Shown here: in pieces, positions 17,481 through 38,712 of the stretch | Layout of the letters: each line of letters opens with the position of its first letter | How positions within the stretch are numbered: the first letter of the stretch is position 1 | Assembly (NCBI GenBank): GCA_041563675.1 | Contig: JBFGRM010000001.1 | Location: 1-38,844 of the forward strand | From: Nitrospiraceae bacterium | Lineage (GTDB): Bacteria > Nitrospirota > Nitrospiria > Nitrospirales > Nitrospiraceae | DNA length: 38,844 nucleotides | Direction of reading: 5' to 3' | Notes under the pieces: generated by a model | The model's database searches: none | What the model was told of the DNA's origin: nothing | Seen by the model: only the letters and a program-made list of their open reading frames with translations | Translations under genes and position numbers: made by a program

Positions 17481-18473
17481 CTATAGAGTGCCCTCCCCTT
17501 TCAGGTACTTTCGAAATCGGTCCATCAGCTCCTCCCCCAGCGTTCCCATCTCGGGCTTTTTCTTCATATATTCGCGTATTTCAGCGAGACGCTTTTCCGC
17601 CTGCTCGTTGCCCTGAAGACGCTTGACCCTTTCCAGGGCGTCCTCGAACGCATCGAACGTGAGTTCACGATATCCGAAGCTCCGGATACGCTTGACGGCT
17701 TTCATCATCGCCTCGTTCCGGAATTTGGTGAGATGCTCGGAATCGATCTCGCGTAATCCCAGCTTCCGAGCTCGACGCTCGGCGGCTTTTCTGATTCCAC
17801 TGCGGACGAAATCGGGTGAGGTCTGCAGGCGCTTCCAAGCGTCATCGGTCCAGAGGACGTCAGCCTGGGGAGCGTCCCACAGGCTGACGAGTGTCTCCTC
17901 GTCGATGCGCGTGAACCCCCGCTCCCTGGCAAGGTCCTCCGCATCACGCTTGACCATATCGGCGACGAAATCCATCGCAATCGCCGGGGACTGCTGTATT
18001 TTCGTCTGAAGCCGTGCGAGCGCGCCTTCCGTCCACTCCATCGGCGGCCCCGCCGCTTCCCTGATATCGCCCATCGCCTCCACCTTCTCGAACAGCTCGA
18101 CGTTGACCTCGAGATGCCCGCGTTCGGTGGCCACTTCCTCCGCGATCTGCTTGATCATGTGCCGCATGAACTCCGGGACGGTCTCCAGTCGTTCCTTGGC
18201 GGCGGCGGTCCAGGGCACGCCTCCTTGCTCCAGCGTCTCCGCCGCCGCCGTCATCCCTGCGGCCCCGCCCATCCGACCCATCATCTGGCTCTTGAACTGA
18301 TCCAGGAGCGGCGCCGTGATCTCCCGGTGCCCCAGTTCGCGCGCCTTCTTCTCGGCCAGACGTTTCACCATCCCGCGGAGAAAAACCGGCGCACGCTCCA
18401 TGCGTTGCAAGGCCTCCTCCGTCCAGACGATGTCCGCCGTCAGGGTCTCTTCTTGCGGGTGATCAGTCGCCAT
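17481..18473 (-). CDS. Protein made of four tandem PCP_red-type domains (the domain found at the C-terminus of protochlorophyllide reductase subunit B) plus a helical tail
   Basis: There are four repeats of W(T)..A..RL...P.F(V/M)R......E..AR..G...I, with the Trp at aa 17, 88, 147 and 208. The gene starts 23 nt after the ihfB stop. Confidence 0.8.
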   Translation of the reverse strand: MATDHPQEETLTADIVWTEEALQRMERAPVFLRGMVKRLAEKKARELGHREITAPLLDQFKSQMMGRMGGAAGMTAAAETLEQGGVPWTAAAKERLETVPEFMRHMIKQIAEEVATERGHLEVNVELFEKVEAMGDIREAAGPPMEWTEGALARLQTKIQQSPAIAMDFVADMVKRDAEDLARERGFTRIDEETLVSLWDAPQADVLWTDDAWKRLQTSPDFVRSGIRKAAERRARKLGLREIDSEHLTKFRNEAMMKAVKRIRSFGYRELTFDAFEDALERVKRLQGNEQAEKRLAEIREYMKKKPEMGTLGEELMDRFRKYLKGEGTL

Positions 18474-30796: not shown

Positions 30797-31549
30797 TCAG
30801 GTCGCCGCGCCGACCTTTTCCATGATCTCGTCGGAGATGTCGAAGTTGGCGTGCACTTTCTGGACGTCGTCTTGATCGTCGAGTATCTCCATCAGCTTCA
30901 GCATCTGCTCGGCGGCCTTCTCGTCCAACTTCACCTGGTTCTGCGCGACATAGGTGACCTCGGCGAAGGACATCTCGATGTTCGCATCACCTAGGGCCTT
31001 CTTCACGGCCTCGAAGTCGGTGGGAGCCGTGGTGACCTCGAAGCTCTTCTCCACGACCTTCACGTCTTCAGCCCCGGCGTCCAGCGCGAGGGAGAGCAGT
31101 TGGTCCTCCTCGATCTTGTCCTTGTCGATGAGGAGCAGCCCCTTCTTCTGGAACTGCCAAGACACGGCCCCCGCCTCCGCCATGTTGCCGCTGTTCTTGG
31201 TGAGCAGGCTGCGAATCTCTGCGACCGTGCGGTTCCGATTGTCCGAGGTGATCTCGAGCAGCACCGCGGTGCCCCCGGGGCCGTACCCCTCCAGCGTGAA
31301 CTCCTCGTAGGTGACGCCCGGCAGCTCGCCGGTTCCGCGCTGGATGGCTTTCTTCATGGTGTCGGCGGGCATGTTCGCGTCCTTGGCCTTGCTGACGGCC
31401 AGGCGCAACCGGGGATTCATATCCGGATCCCCACCGCTCCGGGCGGCAATGGTCAACTCGCGGATGATGCGGGTGAACAGCTTCCCCCGCTTCGCGTCCA
31501 CGGCCGCCTTGTGTCGCTTGGTGGTGGCCCAGTGACTATGGCCGCCCAT
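30797..31549 (-). CDS. yebC: YebC/PmpR-family transcriptional regulator
   Basis: The sequence begins MGGHSHWATTKRHKAAVDAKRGKLFT..IREL..AAR.GG.DP..NPRLR.A...A. Confidence 0.93.
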   Translation of the reverse strand: MGGHSHWATTKRHKAAVDAKRGKLFTRIIRELTIAARSGGDPDMNPRLRLAVSKAKDANMPADTMKKAIQRGTGELPGVTYEEFTLEGYGPGGTAVLLEITSDNRNRTVAEIRSLLTKNSGNMAEAGAVSWQFQKKGLLLIDKDKIEEDQLLSLALDAGAEDVKVVEKSFEVTTAPTDFEAVKKALGDANIEMSFAEVTYVAQNQVKLDEKAAEQMLKLMEILDDQDDVQKVHANFDISDEIMEKVGAAT

Positions 31550-31632
31550 GAGTCGGATGTCCTTTTCCTAGCCCGTCCGTGCCCGTCGACCGTGAAACGG
31601 TTCGGGCCGCCGGGTTGTCGGGTAAGGATAGT

Positions 31633-31662
31633 TGTCTATCACAGGGTCCGCAAGGGTGTCAA
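31633..31662 (-). promoter_or_regulatory. Candidate promoter TTGACA-N18(TGa)-TAGACA upstream of yebC
   Basis: The minus strand reads gcgTTGACAcccttgcggaccctgTGaTAGACAac. The -35 is perfect, and the weak -10 is helped by an extended TGn. Confidence 0.3.
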
Positions 31663-31741
31663 CGCAACGGACTGACGCGCAGGCATCGGCGTTCATCCTT
31701 GGAAAGGCATGTGCGATGGACATGGCAGCGCACCTTCAACG

Positions 31742-31777
31742 AAAAAGGGCTCACCCGGCTGGCGCCGGATGAGCCCT
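31742..31777 (-). terminator. Rho-independent terminator ending the sulfate-assimilation operon
   Basis: The minus strand reads AGGGCTCAtCCGGCgccaGCCGGgTGAGCCCTTTTTcg. It has an 8-bp outer plus a 5-bp inner stem, then T5. It begins 28 nt after the stop of the 31806..32576 gene. Confidence 0.8.
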
Positions 31778-31805
31778 CCCATCGGAAGAGAACCTGTGGA
31801 CTGTC

Positions 31806-32576
31806 CTACATGAACTTCATGAACTTGTCCTTGGCCTCGTCCATCACCTCGGCCGTCACGCTCGTGGCGCCCTGCTCGCGCGCCAGCCGTTCGATTTCGC
31901 GCCGCGCCATCGGGCGGATGAAATCCGGAATATTATCGAGCCGCCGCTCCGCTTCCGGGGACCAGGCGATGCCGTTCGACTCGTTCTTGGAGTCGTCCAT
32001 CACTTGCAGGGTGATGCTCTTGAACCCCCGCTTGCGGGCGTAGGCTTCGACGCTGCTCTGCACCATCGGTTTTACGAAGGACGGAAGGCGATCCAACCGT
32101 TCCTTCGCATCCGGCGTCCAGGTGAAATCTGACGCGCCGCCCTGTGAGCCCGCCGACGCCCCCGTGCCGGTCAGCCCCATCTGGGCGACCATTTCCGAGA
32201 ACGGACACCCCCCACTCGACTTCTCCCCCTCCGAGGTGGTCGGAGAGGAGTTGCTCGGGGCCTCGGCGGCCGTGCTCCCGACGGGTTGCCCGCCGTGGAT
32301 TTTCTCGTTCAGATAATTGGTCATCTGATCCGCGCCGGCCAGCGCATCCTCCTTGAGCGTCCCTCTGGTCATCTCGAAGGGCTCCGCCGGCGCCGATCGA
32401 CCGCCGAGCTTGACGCCCAGGGAGCTGACCATCTGGGTTTCACCCGGGTTGGTCACCATCGAGAATTTCGCCCCGCAGGAGGGGCAGCCGAAGAAGACAC
32501 CCAGGGATCCCTCCGCGGGCTTCTCGACTTTTTCGAAGCTCATGTAGGTTTCGCAGTTGAGACAGACAAACTTCAT
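31806..32576 (-). CDS. Zinc-ribbon protein with two C-terminal PCP_red-type domains
   Basis: The N-terminus is CLNC-N17-CPSC. A Ser/Gly/Ala-rich linker contains GGCPF. The two domains are FTWTPDAKERLDRLPSFVKPMVQSSVEAYARKRGFKSIT and IAWSPEAERRLDNIPDFIRPMARREIERLAREQGATSVT. Confidence 0.8.
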   Translation of the reverse strand: MKFVCLNCETYMSFEKVEKPAEGSLGVFFGCPSCGAKFSMVTNPGETQMVSSLGVKLGGRSAPAEPFEMTRGTLKEDALAGADQMTNYLNEKIHGGQPVGSTAAEAPSNSSPTTSEGEKSSGGCPFSEMVAQMGLTGTGASAGSQGGASDFTWTPDAKERLDRLPSFVKPMVQSSVEAYARKRGFKSITLQVMDDSKNESNGIAWSPEAERRLDNIPDFIRPMARREIERLAREQGATSVTAEVMDEAKDKFMKFM

Positions 32577-32649
32577 GGCGAACCCCCAGCGAAGAATGGC
32601 GTCATAGGATCATGTGCGTCGCCGACGCGCTCTGGCTGTGCCCCACGAA

Positions 32650-33570
32650 TCAGAGCTTCTCGGCGAGCACTTTCTTGTAATCCAGAATCGTCGTCACCCG
32701 CTCGGCAATGTCCCGGTAGCGTTGAATGGTCGGGTAACTTTCGTCCAGCAGCGGGGTCCCTTTGTCGAAGGTCCGGGCCAGGGTGCGATCGAACGGGATC
32801 CGTCCGAGCAGGGGCACGCCCATGGCCTCGCACAGTGCGTCCGTGTTGCCCTCGAAGAGCTCGTGCTCCGATCCGCAGCTCGGGCACCGGTACGAGCTCA
32901 TGTTCTCGACCACGCCCAAGACCTTGATGCCCAGGTCGCGGGCATAGGCCACCGACTTTTGGACGACGTCGGAGGCGACCTCCGACGGGGTCGTGACCAC
33001 GATCGCGCCGGCAAGATCAGGGATGAACCCGGCGATGACCGGCGGCTTGTCGGCGGCCGCGCCCGGAGGGAGGTCGGTCAGCAGAAAGTCCAGATCACCC
33101 CAGAGAACATCGGCGAGGAATTCCCGGATCACGTTCATCTCCATCAGGCCCAGCCAGACCGGGCTGACGTCCATCGGCCCTTTCCAGCGCACCGGGGCGG
33201 CAGCCTGGAGAAAGAAGTCCATCGAGCCGACCTTGATCCCCAGCGGGCCCACCGGTGGGGTCGCGCCCTCGGGCGTCATGGTGAGCTGCTGCCCGTGCAT
33301 CCCCAGCATGCGGGGGACGCAGGGACCGTTCAAGTCCACGTCGAGGAGGCCCACGCGCTGCCCCTGGCGGGCCAGCGCGAGCGCGAGGTTCACGGTCGTC
33401 ATGCTCTTGCCGACGCCGCCCTTGCCGCTCATGACCACGAGTTTATTGCGGATCCCGGCCATGCGGCTCTGCACCTGCTGCATCTGCCCGGTGATCTGCT
33501 GGACGACCTTGGCGTCGTCGCTGTACTGGAGCCTATTGAGGATGCTCTTGAGATCCTTATCGTCTGCCAT
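32650..33570 (-). CDS. Mrp/NBP35/ApbC-family P-loop ATPase (Fe-S cluster carrier)
   Basis: The deviant Walker A is SGKGGVGKSMTTVNLA. Also LLDVDL.GP, DLPPG, and the CPSCGSEHELF cluster-bridging Cys pair. Confidence 0.9.
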   Translation of the reverse strand: MADDKDLKSILNRLQYSDDAKVVQQITGQMQQVQSRMAGIRNKLVVMSGKGGVGKSMTTVNLALALARQGQRVGLLDVDLNGPCVPRMLGMHGQQLTMTPEGATPPVGPLGIKVGSMDFFLQAAAPVRWKGPMDVSPVWLGLMEMNVIREFLADVLWGDLDFLLTDLPPGAAADKPPVIAGFIPDLAGAIVVTTPSEVASDVVQKSVAYARDLGIKVLGVVENMSSYRCPSCGSEHELFEGNTDALCEAMGVPLLGRIPFDRTLARTFDKGTPLLDESYPTIQRYRDIAERVTTILDYKKVLAEKL

Positions 33571-33653
33571 CGACCCTGCCTCTTCTCTTTCGGCACCCCG
33601 CGGGAGGAAAAGCGACTTACCGTATCATGGGGATTTCGACCCCGTCAAACCGC

Positions 33654-35528
33654 TCAGATCGAGTATTGGAACACCGGCTGGTCGCCGATCGCCGTCGCCA
33701 GGATGCCGCTGCGCTTGAGCTGCTCGATGACCTGCCGCGCCGCCTCGTCGAAGTCCTCCGGCCCCGCGAAGGCGAGATCGGCGTCCGGCGGAGCCGCCTC
33801 CTGACCTTTGCTCATGTGAACCGACACCACCGGGGCCGGGTAGACGAGCGTGCGAATGATCTGCTCCGCCTCCTGGTGATCGTGGCCGAACGGGTTGGTC
33901 GTCGAGATGACGATCATCCCGGTGTCAATGAGCAGTCGCGCCACCTCTCCACAGCGCCGGGCCGCCTCCGTCGACTCCGCGCTCGCATCCGCCCCCAGGT
34001 CCGCGTCCAGCCCGTGCTTCAGGTTCTCACCGTCCAGCAAGTAGGCATGGCGTCCTTCGGCCACGAGGAGGGACTCCAGCTTTCGCGCCAGAAAGGCCTT
34101 GCCGGTGTTCGCCGCCCCCGTGAAGAGCACGATGGCGGCGCGATGCCCGTAGTGGCGGGCGCGGTCTTCAGGCCGAACCTCCCCCTTGACCCATGCGAAA
34201 TCACGCTCGCGCGCCTCGTTCCGCAAGACTTCCTGTTCGTCGTGGACCAGCGCCGTGATGATGCCGCCACCGGAAATGTCGTATTCGTCCACCAGGACGA
34301 AGCGTCCGCTGTGCTCGAAGGATGTGGAAAGGTCGAACGCGATCGGGGATCTCGTGCGGATGGTGACCTCCGCCACCTCGTTGCGTTGCACGTCCCGTCT
34401 GGCCCGCTCTTCACCCAGGTTGGCCGCCGACACGATGCGATGGACGGCAGCGATCTCGCAGGCGACTTCGCGGGTTGCCAGGCGCAGGACGTAGCGTCGG
34501 CTGCCCTGTAACGGCCGCCTTCCGAGCCAGAAGACGTTGGCCTTCAACGCCGTCGACACGAGGGGGAGCGCGGCCTCATGCGAGGCGATCTCACCGCGCT
34601 CGACGAAGATCTGCTCGTCCAGCGTGACGCCGATCGACTCCCCCGCCTGCACCTCCACGGGAGGCGGCTCGATGTTGAAGGCCTCGATGCTCTTGACCAT
34701 GGCTGTCTTGTTGGAGGGCGAGAACACGAGCCGGTCGCCCACCCGCAAGCGCCCGGCGGCGATGCGGCCGGCGAGAATCCGTCGGGCGTCGAATTTGTAG
34801 ACGTCCTGCACCGGAAATCGGAGAGGCTTGTCGGCCCTGGCCGTCTCTTTCTTGAAGAGGCCTAGGCTGTCCAGCACCGTCGGCCCGCTGTACCAGGGCA
34901 TCCGCTCGCTGGGCGAGGCGATGTTGTCCCCCATCTTCGCGCTCGCGGGCAGGACGCGGTCGGGGACGACATTCAAAGACGACAGGTATTCACGGTACTC
35001 CTTCTCAATACCGTCGAAGACATCCTGCCGGTACCCCACCAGATCCATCTTGTTGACCACGACCGCCACCTGCTTGACGCCCAGAAGGGAAAGCAACAGA
35101 CCATGCCGTCTCGATTGATCCCGGACGCCTTCGAGCGCATCGATCACCAGGACCGCGGCCTCGGCTCTGGCCGCCCCCGAGACCATGTTCTTGAGGAACT
35201 CCTTGTGGCCCGGCGCATCGATGATGATGTACTGGCGTCCCCGCCATCCGAAGAACGTCCGCGCCGTATCGATCGTGATGCCTTGCTCTTGCTCTTCCAG
35301 GAAGGCGTCGAAGAGGAACGCGTATTCGAACTCCTTCCCCTGCTGCTGGCAGATCGCACGGACCTTGTCCAGCTTGCCGACCGGCAGGGAGTCCGTGTCG
35401 GCATACAGGCGTCCCAGCAGGGTCGACTTGCCGTGATCGACGTGCCCGACGATCACGATGTTCATATGCTCCGCCGCTTTTTCCTGAAGTACAGGCGTGG
35501 TTTCCGTGGTCACCGTCATCCTCTTCAC
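33654..35528 (-). CDS. cysN: Sulfate adenylyltransferase subunit 1 (CysN GTPase) fused to an APS-kinase-like C-terminal domain
   Basis: The GTPase motifs are [15 protein letters not shown] and NKMD. The C-terminal ~180 aa align to CysC but carry altered motifs: [21 protein letters not shown] and ISTTNPF. Confidence 0.9.
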
Positions 35529-35589: not shown

Positions 35590-36387
35590 CTACATGTAGC
35601 CATCTTTACGCAGCAACTCCATCCCCCGGCCCTCATCCTGGGCGCGCCCGGACCGCTCCGCCACGTTGGTCTTCCTCAGCTCCTCGATAATGTCGTCCAC
35701 GGTCCTGGCTGTGGATCGGATCGGGAACGTGCAGGGGGCGCATCCCAGGCTTCGGTATCGCGTGCCCTCGCCCTTATCCAGGTAGAGGTCGATGAAGGGA
35801 ATGCTTTCCAGTTTGATGTATTCCCAAATGTTGATCTCCGTCCAATCCAGCAACGGATGGATGCGAATGTGCGTCCCGGGTGGAAAGAACGTCTTGTACT
35901 GGTCCCAGAGCTCGGGCGGCTGATCCCGGAAATCCCAATCGCTGTTCTTGTCGCGGGGTGAAAAATACCGTTCCTTCGCCCGCGTGCCCTCCTCGTCAGC
36001 GCGCACGCCCAGAATCAGTCCCGTATAGTGCTTGTCCCTGAGCACCTGCTTGAGCCCGTCCGTCTTGAGCGCGTTGCAGCAGGTAACGCGCCCGAGGGTG
36101 TGATTCATCCCGCCGGCCAGGGCTTCCGTGTTCTTCCCGATCACCAGGTTGAGCCGCCATTCGCGCGCAAGTCGGTCGCGATACTCGATCATCGCCGGAA
36201 TCTTGTAGGTGGTGTCGATATGGATGAGCGGAAAGGGCACGTGGCCGAAGAACGCCTTCCGCGCGAGCCAGAGCAACACCGTCGAGTCTTTCCCCATGGA
36301 CCAGAGCATCGCGAGGTTGCTGAAATGTTTGTAGGCCTCACGAAGAATGTAGACGCTTTGACTTTCGAGTTGCCGAAGATGGTTCAT
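35590..36387 (-). CDS. cysD: Sulfate adenylyltransferase subunit 2
   Basis: Motifs are [31 protein letters not shown] (PP-loop), IDTTYK and YRSLGC.PCT. Confidence 0.93.
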
Positions 36388-37511
36388 CGGGCCAATGCCT
36401 CCGTCGACGTGGGATTCTGCGTGACCGGCAAGCCGCCCGGCGCCTCGCCCAGTCGGGCCGCCGCCGCGCCACCGGAACTCCGGGCGCAGCGGCCCGTCTG
36501 AAGGGTCCCGAGCTTGCGTGCCGCGGCCCCGGATTCAAGCGCATGCCGGACAATGGGAAGCGCGGCTCGAAGGGAGGCGGCTTTCCCGGACGCATAGAGG
36601 AGGTGAGCGGCGTTCAGCAGGACCCAGTCGCGCTGACCACCTCGCACCTCGTTGGTGAGCAACCGCCGGAGCAACTCCGCTTCCTTGTCCGCGGACCCGG
36701 ACGCCGGCCTGGCCATGACGCGTTCCTCCGCCGCCTCCAGTCCCACATCGCGTGGGTGAAGAGAGAACGGGGTCATGCGCTCCCCGCGCAGCTCGAGCGC
36801 CTTGGTGCCGGAGGAGATGGAGAGCTCTGACGTGCCCTCGACGCCTCGGACGATGAGGGCATGCTCCGCACGCAGCATCGTGAGGGCCTCACCGGTCTTT
36901 TCGAACTGGGCAGCCTGGGCGACGCCGATGACCTGGGCGCGCGCCCGCGCAGGATTCAGCAGGGTGGCCACCACGTGAAACACATTGCGCAAGCCGAACT
37001 CTCGGCGCAGATCGAGGAAGCGAGCCACGGGCGGGTGGTAGAGGGCGATGTCCAGGTACGCAAAGCCGAGTGAGGCGACGGCCGTAGCCGCGGCTGCGGC
37101 ATCCCCATCCACCGGGAGGCCCAACTCCCCCAGGAGCGAGCCCGGCCCGGTCCCACCGTCCGCGGCGTCATGACCGTGCATGAGGATCGTCGCGCCAGCC
37201 GAGGCCGCTGTGATGGCGGCGGCGATCGAGGCGTGAAAGGTCTCGCGTTTTTCCCCGTACCACGGAAGGTCGACGAGGGGAAGGTCGCGGGGCACGGCCA
37301 CGCGCGGGACATACTCTCGGGTCGTCGCTGTGAAGGCGGCCAGCTCCGCCACGGACTCGATCTTCACGCGCAGTCCCAGCAGCAACGCGCCCACCTGGGC
37401 GGGCGTGGCCTGCTGCTCGATCAGCATGCGCGCGGCCTGCTTCGCCTCCTCCCAGGTGAGGTCCTTGCTCGCCTTCTGTCCCTTACCGATTTTCGCGATC
37501 AGCTCGTGCAT
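36384..37511 (-). CDS. Anthranilate phosphoribosyltransferase-like protein (glycosyltransferase family 3 fold) lacking the PRPP-binding motifs
   Basis: The N-terminal helical bundle is [36 protein letters not shown]. The core aligns to TrpD, but GTGGD becomes PWYGE, KHGN becomes MHGH and G.DE becomes GTSE. The ATG shares nt 37511 with the upstream stop (TGATG), and the stop overlaps the cysD ATG (ATGA). Confidence 0.75.
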
Positions 37512-38005
37512 CAAAATGTCATCACCTGGTCCGCCGTCATGACTTCCTCTTTCCAGAAGGCCTCGGCCGCCTGCACCTCGTCCAACTCCGGGATCAGCTT
37601 GTCGATCGTCATCTCGAACAGCCCCAGGGAGCGTTGGCAGACGGAGAACTTGGCATCCCCGCGTTCCTTGATCTCACGCAGCAGGGCCGGCAGATCATCC
37701 CGTTTCTCTTCCTGCAGCATGTCGCGGATTTTCGACTCTCGCCCCTTGAACGCCTCCGAGAGAACGATGTCCCGCACCTTGTCCACGCTCAACCGTGCGA
37801 CGGCTTCGTCCCTGAACAACATGCTGACTTGGACGCCCGATTCCGCCGCGATGCGGGCAAACTCACAGGCCTGCAGGAGGTTGTTGTAGGCCCCCCGCGT
37901 CAAAATGATCGCCACCTTCTTCACGTCCTTTACCTCTTGCTCCGGCTGCGTAGGGCGCGATTCCTTTGCACGAGGCCCCGAGCCTTTCTTGAGGATGATC
38001 TTCAT
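37511..38005 (-). CDS. DsrE/DsrF-like family protein (COG2210-type, 'peroxiredoxin family' sulfur-carrier-like)
   Basis: Motifs are KKVAIILTRGAYNNLLQACEFARIAAESGVQVSMLF and the C-terminal AKFSVCQRSLGLF. ATG 38005 overlaps the cysH stop (ATGA at 38002-38005). The ORF-track extension to 38098 would overlap cysH by 97 nt. Confidence 0.6.
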   Translation of the reverse strand: MKIILKKGSGPRAKESRPTQPEQEVKDVKKVAIILTRGAYNNLLQACEFARIAAESGVQVSMLFRDEAVARLSVDKVRDIVLSEAFKGRESKIRDMLQEEKRDDLPALLREIKERGDAKFSVCQRSLGLFEMTIDKLIPELDEVQAAEAFWKEEVMTADQVMTF

Positions 38006-38712
38006 TGATGAAGCCCGCACTCGGTCTTGGGCCGGTTTTGCCAGCGGCCCGAACGGGAATCCTCTCCGGGCTCCACCGGCGCCGTGCAATGGGTGCACCC
38101 GATGCTCGGGTAGTTCCGATCGTGCAGCGGGTTGTACGGGACCTCATGGACCTGGATGTAGGCCCAGACGTCCGCGGCCGTCCACTTCGCCAAGGGGTTG
38201 ACCTTCACCAAGCCGAATTTGTGATCCCATTCGACCAGTCCCGCCTGTGCGCGCGAGGGAGCCTGGTCCCGACGAATGCCCGTGATCCACGCGTCGTAGC
38301 CACGTAGGACCCGGGACAGGGGCTCGACCTTGCGCAGGGCGCAGCAGCGGTCGGGATCACGCATCCACAAGGCCTCACCGTGCTCCCGTGCCTGCCGTTC
38401 CGGCGTCAGAAGCGACTTGACCTGCAGCACCTGCTCGGGGCGAAGGCCGTACCGTTCAATGACCCGGTCCCGTGTCGCGAGTGTCTCCGGGAACAGAAAA
38501 TCCGTGTCGAGGTAGAAGAGCGGGGTGTCCGGCTTGAGGCGGTGAATCATGTCGACCAGGACCACGTCCTCTGCCCCGAAGCTGCACGCCAGGATCACCC
38601 GCGGAGTAAAGCGCTCCAGCGCATCGGCCAGGACATCCTGTGGCTGCCGTGCTTCGAAGGAATCGCTGAGCGCCTTCAGGTCAGCTTCCGTTGGTCTCAC
38701 ATTCGTCGACAC
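38002..38712 (-). CDS. cysH: Adenylylsulfate (APS) / PAPS reductase, thioredoxin-dependent; the Fe-S-cluster subtype, which points to APS as substrate
   Basis: The PP-loop-like motif is ACSFGAEDVVL. The paired Cys motifs CC (DRCCALRK) plus CxxC (SIGCTHC) are characteristic of [4Fe-4S] APS reductases. The C-terminal catalytic motif is ECGLH. Start is GTG 38712, with GGAGA upstream. Confidence 0.9.
   Translation of the reverse strand: MSTNVRPTEADLKALSDSFEARQPQDVLADALERFTPRVILACSFGAEDVVLVDMIHRLKPDTPLFYLDTDFLFPETLATRDRVIERYGLRPEQVLQVKSLLTPERQAREHGEALWMRDPDRCCALRKVEPLSRVLRGYDAWITGIRRDQAPSRAQAGLVEWDHKFGLVKVNPLAKWTAADVWAYIQVHEVPYNPLHDRNYPSIGCTHCTAPVEPGEDSRSGRWQNRPKTECGLHQ

Follow-up and report, generated by a model that had tools for sequence, protein, structure and literature searches.

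A conserved Mrp ATPase and PCP_red protein pair in Nitrospirota and its probable place in a haem/oxidase maturation network

Introduction

P-loop ATPases of the Mrp/ApbC/NBP35 family are iron-sulfur (Fe-S) carriers in which the C-terminal CxxC motif bridges a [4Fe-4S] cluster across the dimer, and MrpORP, Ind1, and HCF101 are specialised paralogs that serve particular clients. Here, we analyse an Mrp-type ATPase and the protein encoded directly downstream of it, a 256-residue protein with two PCP_red domains that is referred to as X, in a 38,844-nucleotide (nt) stretch of DNA from a Nitrospiraceae bacterium (GenBank assembly GCA_041563675.1, contig JBFGRM010000001.1, positions 1 to 38,844 of the forward strand), hereafter the window. 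An initial annotation, made from the letters of the window alone, had proposed that the two proteins could be a dedicated maturation or electron-delivery module for CysH and sulfite reductase. The comparisons described below suggest that they are a conserved two-protein unit of far wider distribution, which fairly likely acts in the maturation of haem and oxidase cofactors.

Another described system with similarities is dark-operative protochlorophyllide reductase (DPOR), which is composed of BchL and BchN-BchB and whose BchB subunit carries a PCP_red domain. A lid role of the BchB C-terminus is said to have been described by Muraki et al. in 2010. One sentence in a further source likewise gives the C-terminus of BchB as a lid of the tetrapyrrole pocket (PMC4071322). 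In addition, transient binding of Fe(III)-haem is known for Cys-Pro (CP) motifs that stand in flexible loops (PMC10377097), and the haem-regulatory form of such motifs is Cys-Pro followed by a hydrophobic residue (PMC10377097; PMC2742820). A literature search on PF08369 or "PCP reductase family protein" yielded no relevant paper, and neither the Mrp-X module nor a role of PCP_red outside chlorophyll synthesis is described in the literature searched.

Results

Co-occurrence and adjacency of the ATPase and X

The 306-residue ATPase is encoded at positions 32650-33570 and X at 31806-32576, both on the minus strand. Proteins were assigned by the profile cut-offs of Pfam and NCBIfam, folds were predicted by AlphaFold2, and structures were matched by Foldseek. 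In a sample of 301 Nitrospirota genomes, which are related, so that the counts are not independent, the N-terminal domain of X was found in 92, including almost every genome of the window's class. The X-type Mrp was found in 72 genomes, all of which also contain X (72/72), and in none of the 209 genomes that lack X. The gene pair recurs throughout the class. One genome of the window's own family (G192 of family f1, 98% complete) has 12 PCP_red matches and no match for the X N-domain or the X-type Mrp, which reflects either the joint loss of X and Mrp or an assembly gap at their shared locus.

To cover other phyla, 80 loci from at least 10 phyla outside Nitrospirota were fetched with a 13-sequence alignment of the X N-domain, and the neighbouring genes were called with a filter on third-codon-position G+C (GC3); gene orders were tallied without the 14 loci in which no X had been called. 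In 57 of the 80 loci, the gene directly upstream of X, and on its strand, encodes an Mrp homolog (38-50% identical). The paired loci belong to Latescibacterota, Rhodothermales and other Bacteroidota, Calditrichia, Marinimicrobia, Methylomirabilota, Poribacteria, TA06, Gemmatimonadota, Deferribacteres, and Thermodesulfobacteriota. The upstream position of Mrp in these loci, together with the strict co-occurrence within Nitrospirota, supports the proposal of the initial annotation that mrp and X are a functional pair.

Two apparent Mrp-X fusions were rejected. In P0260, Mrp is split into two overlapping calls and the assembly was judged to be a long-read one, and the fusion is therefore likely to be an indel artefact. 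P0281, the only hit in a search for longer fused forms of X, is an X frame that continues into the membrane protein encoded downstream.

In some loci of Rokubacteria/Methylomirabilota, X does not adjoin Mrp; its PFEHLR motif is kept, and an X-type Mrp is encoded elsewhere in four of five such genomes (54-61% identity). In three of these four genomes, the unlinked Mrp directly follows a gene for a radical SAM enzyme with a PCP_red domain, and in the fourth it follows a 4xPCP_red-like gene. As a separate observation, a conserved 108-126-residue protein without a family precedes X in ten loci of this group (L101:7678-8004, plus strand, and nine others), and genes for HU and a D-Ala-D-Ala carboxypeptidase follow X in place of the Mrp and oxidase genes.

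Predicted contact between Mrp and X, and its natural loss

The X-linked Mrp matches PF10609 with 248.1 bits (cut-off 27.1), its residues 40-292 covering profile positions 2-245 of 246. The deviant Walker A motif SGKGGVGKS (residues 48-56) is invariant among 57 members of the subfamily, as are C229 and C232 of the CPSC motif (residues 229-232). The protein scores below the equivalog cut-offs for both ApbC (NF008669, 183.4 vs 348 bits) and MrpORP (NF041136, 257.3 vs 450 bits), and by these sequence comparisons it is a distinct subfamily, neither ApbC nor MrpORP. Weak matches of its P-loop region to NifH, BchL, BchX, and CfbC were also found. The genome encodes three Mrp-class paralogs, of which the X-linked one is the most divergent; the two others outscore it on PF10609. 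Only the X-linked paralog has an insertion of about 11 residues (approximately 126-139) with conserved tryptophans, and it also has a subfamily-specific N-terminal helix. The residues W129, W139, R149, D154, and W157 are invariant in the subfamily.

A complex of an Mrp dimer with one X (2+1) was predicted in three runs alongside three controls. The Mrp-X complex scored 0.63, and the best of the controls scored 0.02. The mark used for this score is reached by 58 of 80 solved complexes and by 2 of 110 mismatched pairs, counts that hold only roughly for Mrp-X, because its prediction was run on custom alignments and with one chain present twice; of 44 gene neighbours picked blindly, only 7 passed. 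The runs share at least 73% of their contacts, with a predicted local distance difference test (pLDDT) value of at least 65 for the partner. In the predicted interface, residues 2-81 of X touch residues 5-26, 93-103, and 119-154 of Mrp, which are the subfamily-specific parts of the ATPase, including the insertion (interface residues 119-147). The contacts with the lowest predicted error are between residues 66-70 of X and residues 96-103 and 146-154 of Mrp. The last PCP_red module of X (212-224 and 245-256) and the C-terminus of Mrp (291-306) are also in the interface, the partner residues among these being unspecified, and the CxxC residues of Mrp lie outside it.

A natural loss of the ATPase bears on the same surface. 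All 13 genomes of one genus-level clade (genus g2), each at least 99% complete, lack the X-type Mrp and keep only two general Mrp paralogs (39-43% identity), whereas three control genomes, two of the same genus and one of a neighbouring genus, have it (81-83% identity). The X proteins of this clade, which had given weaker N-domain matches in the 301-genome search, have an almost unchanged ribbon, CPF motif, and pair of PCP_red modules, whereas residues 46-80, including EPFEMTR, are rewritten and shortened. The motif of the EPFEMTR region is conserved across phyla, and the rewritten segment coincides exactly with the predicted Mrp contact. Taken together, the model and the natural loss suggest that Mrp and X most likely bind each other physically.

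In the one locus of this clade that was examined (G189, L147:4361-9178), cysNC and X are 4.8 kb apart, with unrelated genes in between that include those for OmpA-family and coiled-coil proteins and some of which lie on the opposite strand. A Pfam scan of this insert and of the genes flanking the pair in the sister family f2 was uninformative, returning OmpA, coiled-coil, Dus, and unmatched proteins.

Domain organisation of X

The single-sequence AlphaFold2 model of X was poor (pLDDT 55.5), and the model obtained with a 99-sequence alignment was used instead. In that model, residues 1-50 form a beta-ribbon, residues 95-148 are disordered with a short helix at the CPF motif, and two three-helix modules follow (pLDDT 76-91).

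The ribbon (positions 32427-32576, minus strand; pLDDT 82-89) is three-stranded and carries two CxxC knuckles, whose cysteines C5, C8, C31, and C34 are invariant in the 99 sequences; the second knuckle, CPSCG, is rubredoxin-like. The pair of CxxC motifs had been recognised correctly in the initial annotation, whereas the spacing between them is 22 residues, not the 17 given there. In addition, the N-terminal part, which had been described as the ribbon only, proved to contain the ribbon within a longer conserved unit of approximately 75-80 residues with the pattern MKF.C..C...GS..V.F.CP.CG...M.TN..ETQ.V.SLGVK.GGR...EP.E..R. No Pfam family matched these N-terminal 75-80 residues, and a look-up of residues 1-95 in the ESM Atlas led to no other family than that of X itself (scores up to 0.83). 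The Foldseek matches of the ribbon are the zinc ribbons of NrdR, ZPR1, and an RNA polymerase I subunit (E 0.03-0.4). The segment SLGVKLGGR...EPFEMTR (residues 51-81; positions 32334-32426, minus strand) is the predicted main contact with Mrp.

The disordered linker contains Cys124-Pro125-Phe126 (positions 32199-32207, minus strand), a candidate haem-binding CP motif, which is of the haem-regulatory type by its sequence form. Its cysteine had been called a lone one. Instead, CPF is a conserved motif of the linker, which all 120 close relatives contain, as do 61 of the 65 X proteins of other phyla and 37 of the 61 distant representatives.

The C-terminal half contains two full-length stretches of PF08369 (PCP_red; E 1.9e-36, 124.2 bits, cut-off 32.5), so that the PCP_red assignment, which a failing hidden Markov model (HMM) search was to have overturned, stands. 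The first module (positions 31989-32120, minus strand) scores 57.8 bits and the second (31830-31964, minus strand) 73.4 bits, the latter corresponding to the one module that is present in other phyla. Foldseek matched the modules to 2KRU and 2L09 (probability 1.00, root-mean-square deviation 1.4-1.6 Å, E 4e-3) and also to chain D of 2YNM. A search without a word index gave 886 relatives of X, most of which are 130-200 residues long and combine this N-domain with a single PCP_red module; in these proteins, the CPF motif is usually present as well.

Genomic company of the pair

Clustering of the neighbouring genes in the loci from other phyla revealed a recurrent order. It starts with c-type cytochromes, a radical SAM/SPASM enzyme with a PCP_red domain, and three proteins without a family, and continues with a 646-residue Usp-3xPCP_red-rubredoxin-like protein, Mrp, X, a DUF420 or CopD-like protein, and COX genes. 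The Usp-PCP_red partners match the rubredoxin-like domain of rubrerythrin, PF21349. The three family-less proteins (approximately 288, 198, and 126 residues; no Pfam or NCBIfam match) are conserved, and their genes separate that of the radical SAM-PCP_red enzyme from that of the Usp-PCP_red protein (L044:3000-4904, plus strand, with counterparts in some 15-25 loci). None of the 80 loci has cysH, cysD, or cysN within 8 kb of X.

The radical SAM/SPASM-PCP_red enzymes match TIGR04545/TIGR04055 over their full length with 312-346 bits (at most 346 for NirJ2 and at most 320 for AhbD), and the cut-offs are 500. A search of the complete genomes of the window's group for AhbC gave, as its top match, the radical SAM-PCP_red enzyme (about 150 bits; cut-off 650), and these genomes do encode a ChdC/Cld-family protein. 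Because AhbC was not found and a ChdC/Cld-family protein is encoded, the radical SAM-PCP_red enzyme is not simply an enzyme of the Ahb pathway; it would be either an alternative coproheme decarboxylase or another haem modifier. On the same two findings, the siroheme/Ahb pathway was rejected as a rationale for the linkage to the cys genes.

A similar company is seen in deep lineages of the window's own class. In L130 and L132, the pair occurs with DUF420, 4xPCP_red, Usp-PCP_red, and radical SAM-PCP_red genes and a bd-like oxidase. In L132, DUF420-Mrp-X-4xPCP_red faces the genes for Usp-PCP_red, radical SAM-PCP_red, and a CopD-like protein, and the whole set lies beside the bd-like oxidase. The expectation that the pair is a cofactor-related accessory module is supported. 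The relatives associate with Fe-S and tetrapyrrole genes, namely those for an AhbD/NirJ2-like radical SAM/SPASM enzyme and for other PCP_red proteins.

Whereas L132 and other phyla have all module parts side by side, the window's genome has them dispersed, with mrp-X and a 4xPCP_red gene in the window and the radical SAM-PCP_red gene on contig C233. The complete genomes of the family likewise encode five dispersed PCP_red proteins, namely X, the 4xPCP_red protein, the radical SAM-PCP_red enzyme, a 711-726-residue frame with three PCP_red stretches, and a small Cys-rich 2xPCP_red protein. The 711-726-residue frame, whose distance from the radical SAM gene is about 1 kb, is probably the Usp-PCP_red protein, its Usp domain being presumed from a frame with PCP_red matches only.

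The 330-residue 4xPCP_red protein (positions 17481-18473, minus strand; four stretches of PF08369, E 1.9e-45) has a C-terminal extension and is encoded after sppA, rpsA, and cmk, 14 kb from X, a spacing shared by four complete genomes of the family. In L130 and L132, about 1 kb separates its gene from X, and this interval holds no recognised gene; because of this difference in spacing, housekeeping genes seem to have been inserted between the two in the window's family.

Several further PCP_red loci were observed. On contig C233, the AhbD/NirJ2-like radical SAM/SPASM enzyme with a C-terminal PCP_red (L012:215-1597, plus strand) is followed by a CopD/DUF4149-like gene, and the contig ends just upstream of it, where the 711-726-residue frame lies in complete genomes. 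On contig C19 of the window's genome, the small Cys-rich protein (168 residues; L011:2374-2877, minus strand), whose N-terminus is of a different Cys-rich kind and which has two PCP_red modules, is encoded between DUF420 and bd-like oxidase genes; contigs C19 and C207 carry near-duplicate copies of this locus, which suggests a strain mixture or a real duplication. In many Nitrospirota outside the window's class (for example, 21 of the 28 genomes of f17), there is exactly one PCP_red match, in frames of about 430-465 residues where listed.

The locus in the window and its transcription unit

The contig has 63% G+C, and the source genome is 84% complete; near-identical proteins in the databases carry names that point to Nitrospira/Nitrospiraceae. 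On the minus strand, the order is cysH (38002-38712), a dsrE-like gene, a trpD2-like gene (36384-37514), cysD (35590-36387), cysNC (33654-35528; GTP_EFTU and APS_kinase domains), mrp, and X, and then yebC, ruvA, and ruvB. The positions and strand of the Fe-S carrier ATPase directly 3' of cysN and of the 256-residue protein next to it agree with the initial annotation. The spacer between the end of cysNC, the upstream operon neighbour, and the start of mrp is 83 nt, and that between mrp and X is 73 nt.

RNA folding revealed a G+C-rich, terminator-like hairpin followed by UUUUU 3' of X (31737-31784, minus strand; folding free energy -39.4 kcal/mol, z -4.9; none of 200 shuffles equally stable), and yebC starts beyond a 256-nt gap. 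Since this hairpin and U-tract lie directly 3' of X, mrp-X is the 3' end of the sulfate-operon transcription unit, in line with the earlier description of the pair as the tail of that operon. A consensus promoter and terminator scan of 31400-33800 listed no site, and it missed the post-X hairpin too. The cysNC-mrp spacer (33571-33653, minus strand) contains, on the coding strand, TTGACG, 18 nt, and TACGGT, a weak promoter-like pair, and mrp-X may thus have an internal promoter of its own.

The order cysH-(dsrE)-trpD2-cysD-cysNC-mrp-X was found in 17 of 17 loci of the window's own family f1, which is probably Nitrospiraceae, and in one genome of a sister family, f3. In the sister family f2, mrp-X is present and cysNC is within 1.5 kb on either side in 0 of 11 loci; in three f2 loci covered more widely, no cys gene was found within about 9 kb. 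Because the cys adjacency is limited to f1 and one f3 genome and was not seen in the f2 loci or the deep lineages, the sulfate linkage is probably a derived rearrangement of one family.

Discussion

We propose that Mrp-X is the Mrp arm of a widespread PCP_red network for the maturation of haem and oxidase cofactors, an explanation that we regard as fairly likely. At the core of the network would be the AhbD/NirJ2-like radical SAM/SPASM enzyme, which itself bears a PCP_red module at its C-terminus. Outside the window's family, the network is located in gene islands of terminal oxidases. The Cys4 ribbon of X and the EPFEMTR segment after it would bind to the ATPase, and the rest of X, with the CPF motif and one or two three-helix PCP_red modules, would hang from the flexible linker. 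In this way, the Mrp-X complex would be brought to the PCP_red-bearing haem-type radical SAM enzyme, to which it might supply Fe-S clusters, and/or from which it might pass on a haem-like substrate or product; such a hand-over would proceed via the CP motif and the PCP_red lid and would serve the maturation of respiratory oxidases. The small molecule handled is probably a tetrapyrrole, haem or a haem precursor, because of the CP motif and the AhbD-like radical SAM partner. Cluster binding by Mrp, haem binding by X, and the identity of the clients are inferred from motifs and gene context. In the window's family, the pair has probably been relocated to the sulfate-assimilation operon, whose 3' end it forms, and would therefore be expressed together with the sulfur supply, and CysH and sulfite reductase may be further clients there.

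Several points weigh against this proposal. The binding of Mrp and X is supported by a model and one loss event, the 13 genomes forming a single clade and therefore counting as one observation. The survival of X without the X-type Mrp in that clade means that the core role of X does not strictly need the specialised Mrp. Conversely, the radical SAM-PCP_red fusion probably occurs in many other Nitrospirota without X or the X-type Mrp, the radical SAM domain of their frames being presumed. Of the 61 distant representatives of the X family, 23 have no linker cysteine at all, so that about one third lack the CP motif. As for the lid, the "C-terminal helix" of BchB may lie outside the Pfam PCP_red region. 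Finally, an oxidase or haem role does not explain the family-wide placement behind cysNC, which may reflect a real link to sulfur.

If that link were the whole function, the pair would be a dedicated maturation or electron-delivery module for the CysH and sulfite reductase of sulfate assimilation, a pathway that needs both [4Fe-4S] clusters and siroheme. The cysH-to-X order is kept in every f1 locus and in the one f3 genome, and the transcription unit ends with the hairpin after X; the 83-nt spacer without a listed terminator-like site points the same way, weakly, as the scan also missed that hairpin. Against this, none of the 80 other-phylum loci has cysH, cysD, or cysN within 8 kb, f2 (1.5 kb on either side in 11 loci, about 9 kb in three) and the deep lineages show no such link, and the Mrp-less clade retains X although, in the locus examined, 4.8 kb separate it from cysNC. 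Furthermore, none of the PCP_red matches of the genome is in the sulfite reductase or cysH genes, and no AhbC was found in the complete genomes of the group, so that there is no shared route from siroheme to haem. We therefore consider a dedicated sulfate module improbable, and the function proposed in the initial annotation is not supported: the cys adjacency is confined to the 17 f1 loci and one f3 genome. The wider association that the initial annotation had named as a check is seen for Fe-S/tetrapyrrole genes, whereas for sulfur genes it does not, in the loci covered, extend beyond those genomes.

Alternatively, the pair could belong to a reductase, in which the Mrp dimer is a BchL/NifH-like, ATP-driven donor of low-potential electrons, X and Usp-PCP_red carry rubredoxin-type Fe(Cys)4 sites, and PCP_red docks the reductase on a tetrapyrrole radical SAM enzyme that needs an electron per turnover. 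Mrp and BchL/NifH are related P-loop dimers, as the weak NifH, BchL, BchX, and CfbC matches reflect, the CPSCG knuckle of X is as in rubredoxins, Usp-PCP_red matches PF21349, the one setting in which PCP_red was known before is a reductase of the nitrogenase-like kind that acts on a tetrapyrrole, and the X-type Mrp directly follows the radical SAM gene in three genomes. However, the fold of the Cys4 site of X matches zinc ribbons, while its sequence cannot tell zinc from iron, the CxxC of Mrp lies outside the predicted X interface, and we know of no Mrp/NBP35 protein that was shown to be an ATP-dependent reductase; electron donation is thus unlikely. That the two proteins have no specific function in common, with Mrp carrying Fe-S clusters in general, X binding metal as a small protein unrelated to it, and both the adjacency and the place in the operon being neutral hitchhiking, is the least probable of these alternatives and would be surprising. 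Gene neighbours often do not interact, as the 7 of 44 that passed the complex test illustrate, and X persists without the X-type Mrp in one clade. Nevertheless, the adjacency spans at least 10 phyla, the co-occurrence is complete, the subfamily-specific insertion of Mrp lies within the predicted interface, the docking segment decays only where Mrp is lost, and two general-type Mrp paralogs are already present in the genome.

These considerations place two genes annotated merely as "Mrp" and "PCP reductase family protein" as a conserved two-protein unit in at least 10 phyla, which belongs with haem/oxidase maturation genes rather than with sulfur metabolism; the earlier reading was plausible and too narrow. 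The present analysis adds the predicted Mrp-X interface, the evidence from co-occurrence and from the natural loss, the CP motif, and the relocation to the sulfate operon in the window's family. The predicted interface is concrete, setting EPFEMTR of X against the subfamily-specific insertion of Mrp, and offers defined residues for mutation. Nitrospira, which have unusual terminal oxidases, are the main nitrite oxidisers of soils, oceans, and wastewater plants. In a more tentative reading, which is less likely than not, PCP_red could be a portable docking or lid module that wires four kinds of protein into one machine, not recognised before, which would finish a haem cofactor and deliver it to terminal oxidases: the haem-type radical SAM enzyme, the dedicated Mrp, the CP-motif haem carriers, and the DUF420/CtaM-like and CopD-like assembly factors. 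If so, haem would also be delivered to the poorly understood bd-like oxidases of Nitrospira, Mrp-X would be the ATP-driven hand-over step, and sulfate-operon control in the window's family would coordinate the supply of sulfur, Fe-S clusters, and haem.

The proposed unit resembles several described systems in part. With the Mrp/ApbC/NBP35 carriers, including MrpORP of Desulfovibrio, Ind1/NUBPL, and HCF101, the X-linked Mrp shares PF10609, GKGGVGKS, and the C-terminal CxxC. Unlike them, it lacks a DUF59/MIP18-type N-terminal domain, has its own insertion and N-terminal helix, and is paired with an obligate small partner, X; to our knowledge, no described Mrp has such a partner. The radical SAM-PCP_red enzyme is related to the haem b synthases AhbD/NirJ2, but it falls below the 500-bit equivalog cut-offs and carries an extra PCP_red module.

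The CPF motif of X is like the haem-regulatory motifs of HO-2, Bach1/2, IRP2, and ALAS in that Cys-Pro and a hydrophobic residue stand in a flexible or disordered stretch. In contrast, the cases known so far are mostly eukaryotic regulators, whereas X is bacterial and the motif is absent from about a third of its distant relatives.

With DPOR, X shares the PCP_red module, which matches the C-terminus of BchB/ChlB by HMM and by fold (2KRU and chain D of 2YNM), and both systems have a SIMIBI-class ATPase dimer beside a tetrapyrrole-handling Fe-S enzyme, which in the case of Mrp-X is the putative role of the radical SAM protein. X differs from BchB/ChlB in lacking a BchN/BchB core, matching TIGR01278 with 79.7 bits against a cut-off of 490 and at profile positions 462-511 only. 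Moreover, the ATPase is of the Mrp type and not of the NifH type, the tetrapyrrole enzyme would be a radical SAM protein, and the organisms are not phototrophs. The closest structure to X is Asr4154 of Nostoc PCC 7120 (2L09; 38% identity over 52 columns, template modelling score 0.74 by target length), which demonstrates that a PCP_red module can exist outside BchB, as it does in X. Asr4154 is a single 62-residue domain, whereas X combines its PCP_red modules with a ribbon, a CP motif, and an Mrp partner.

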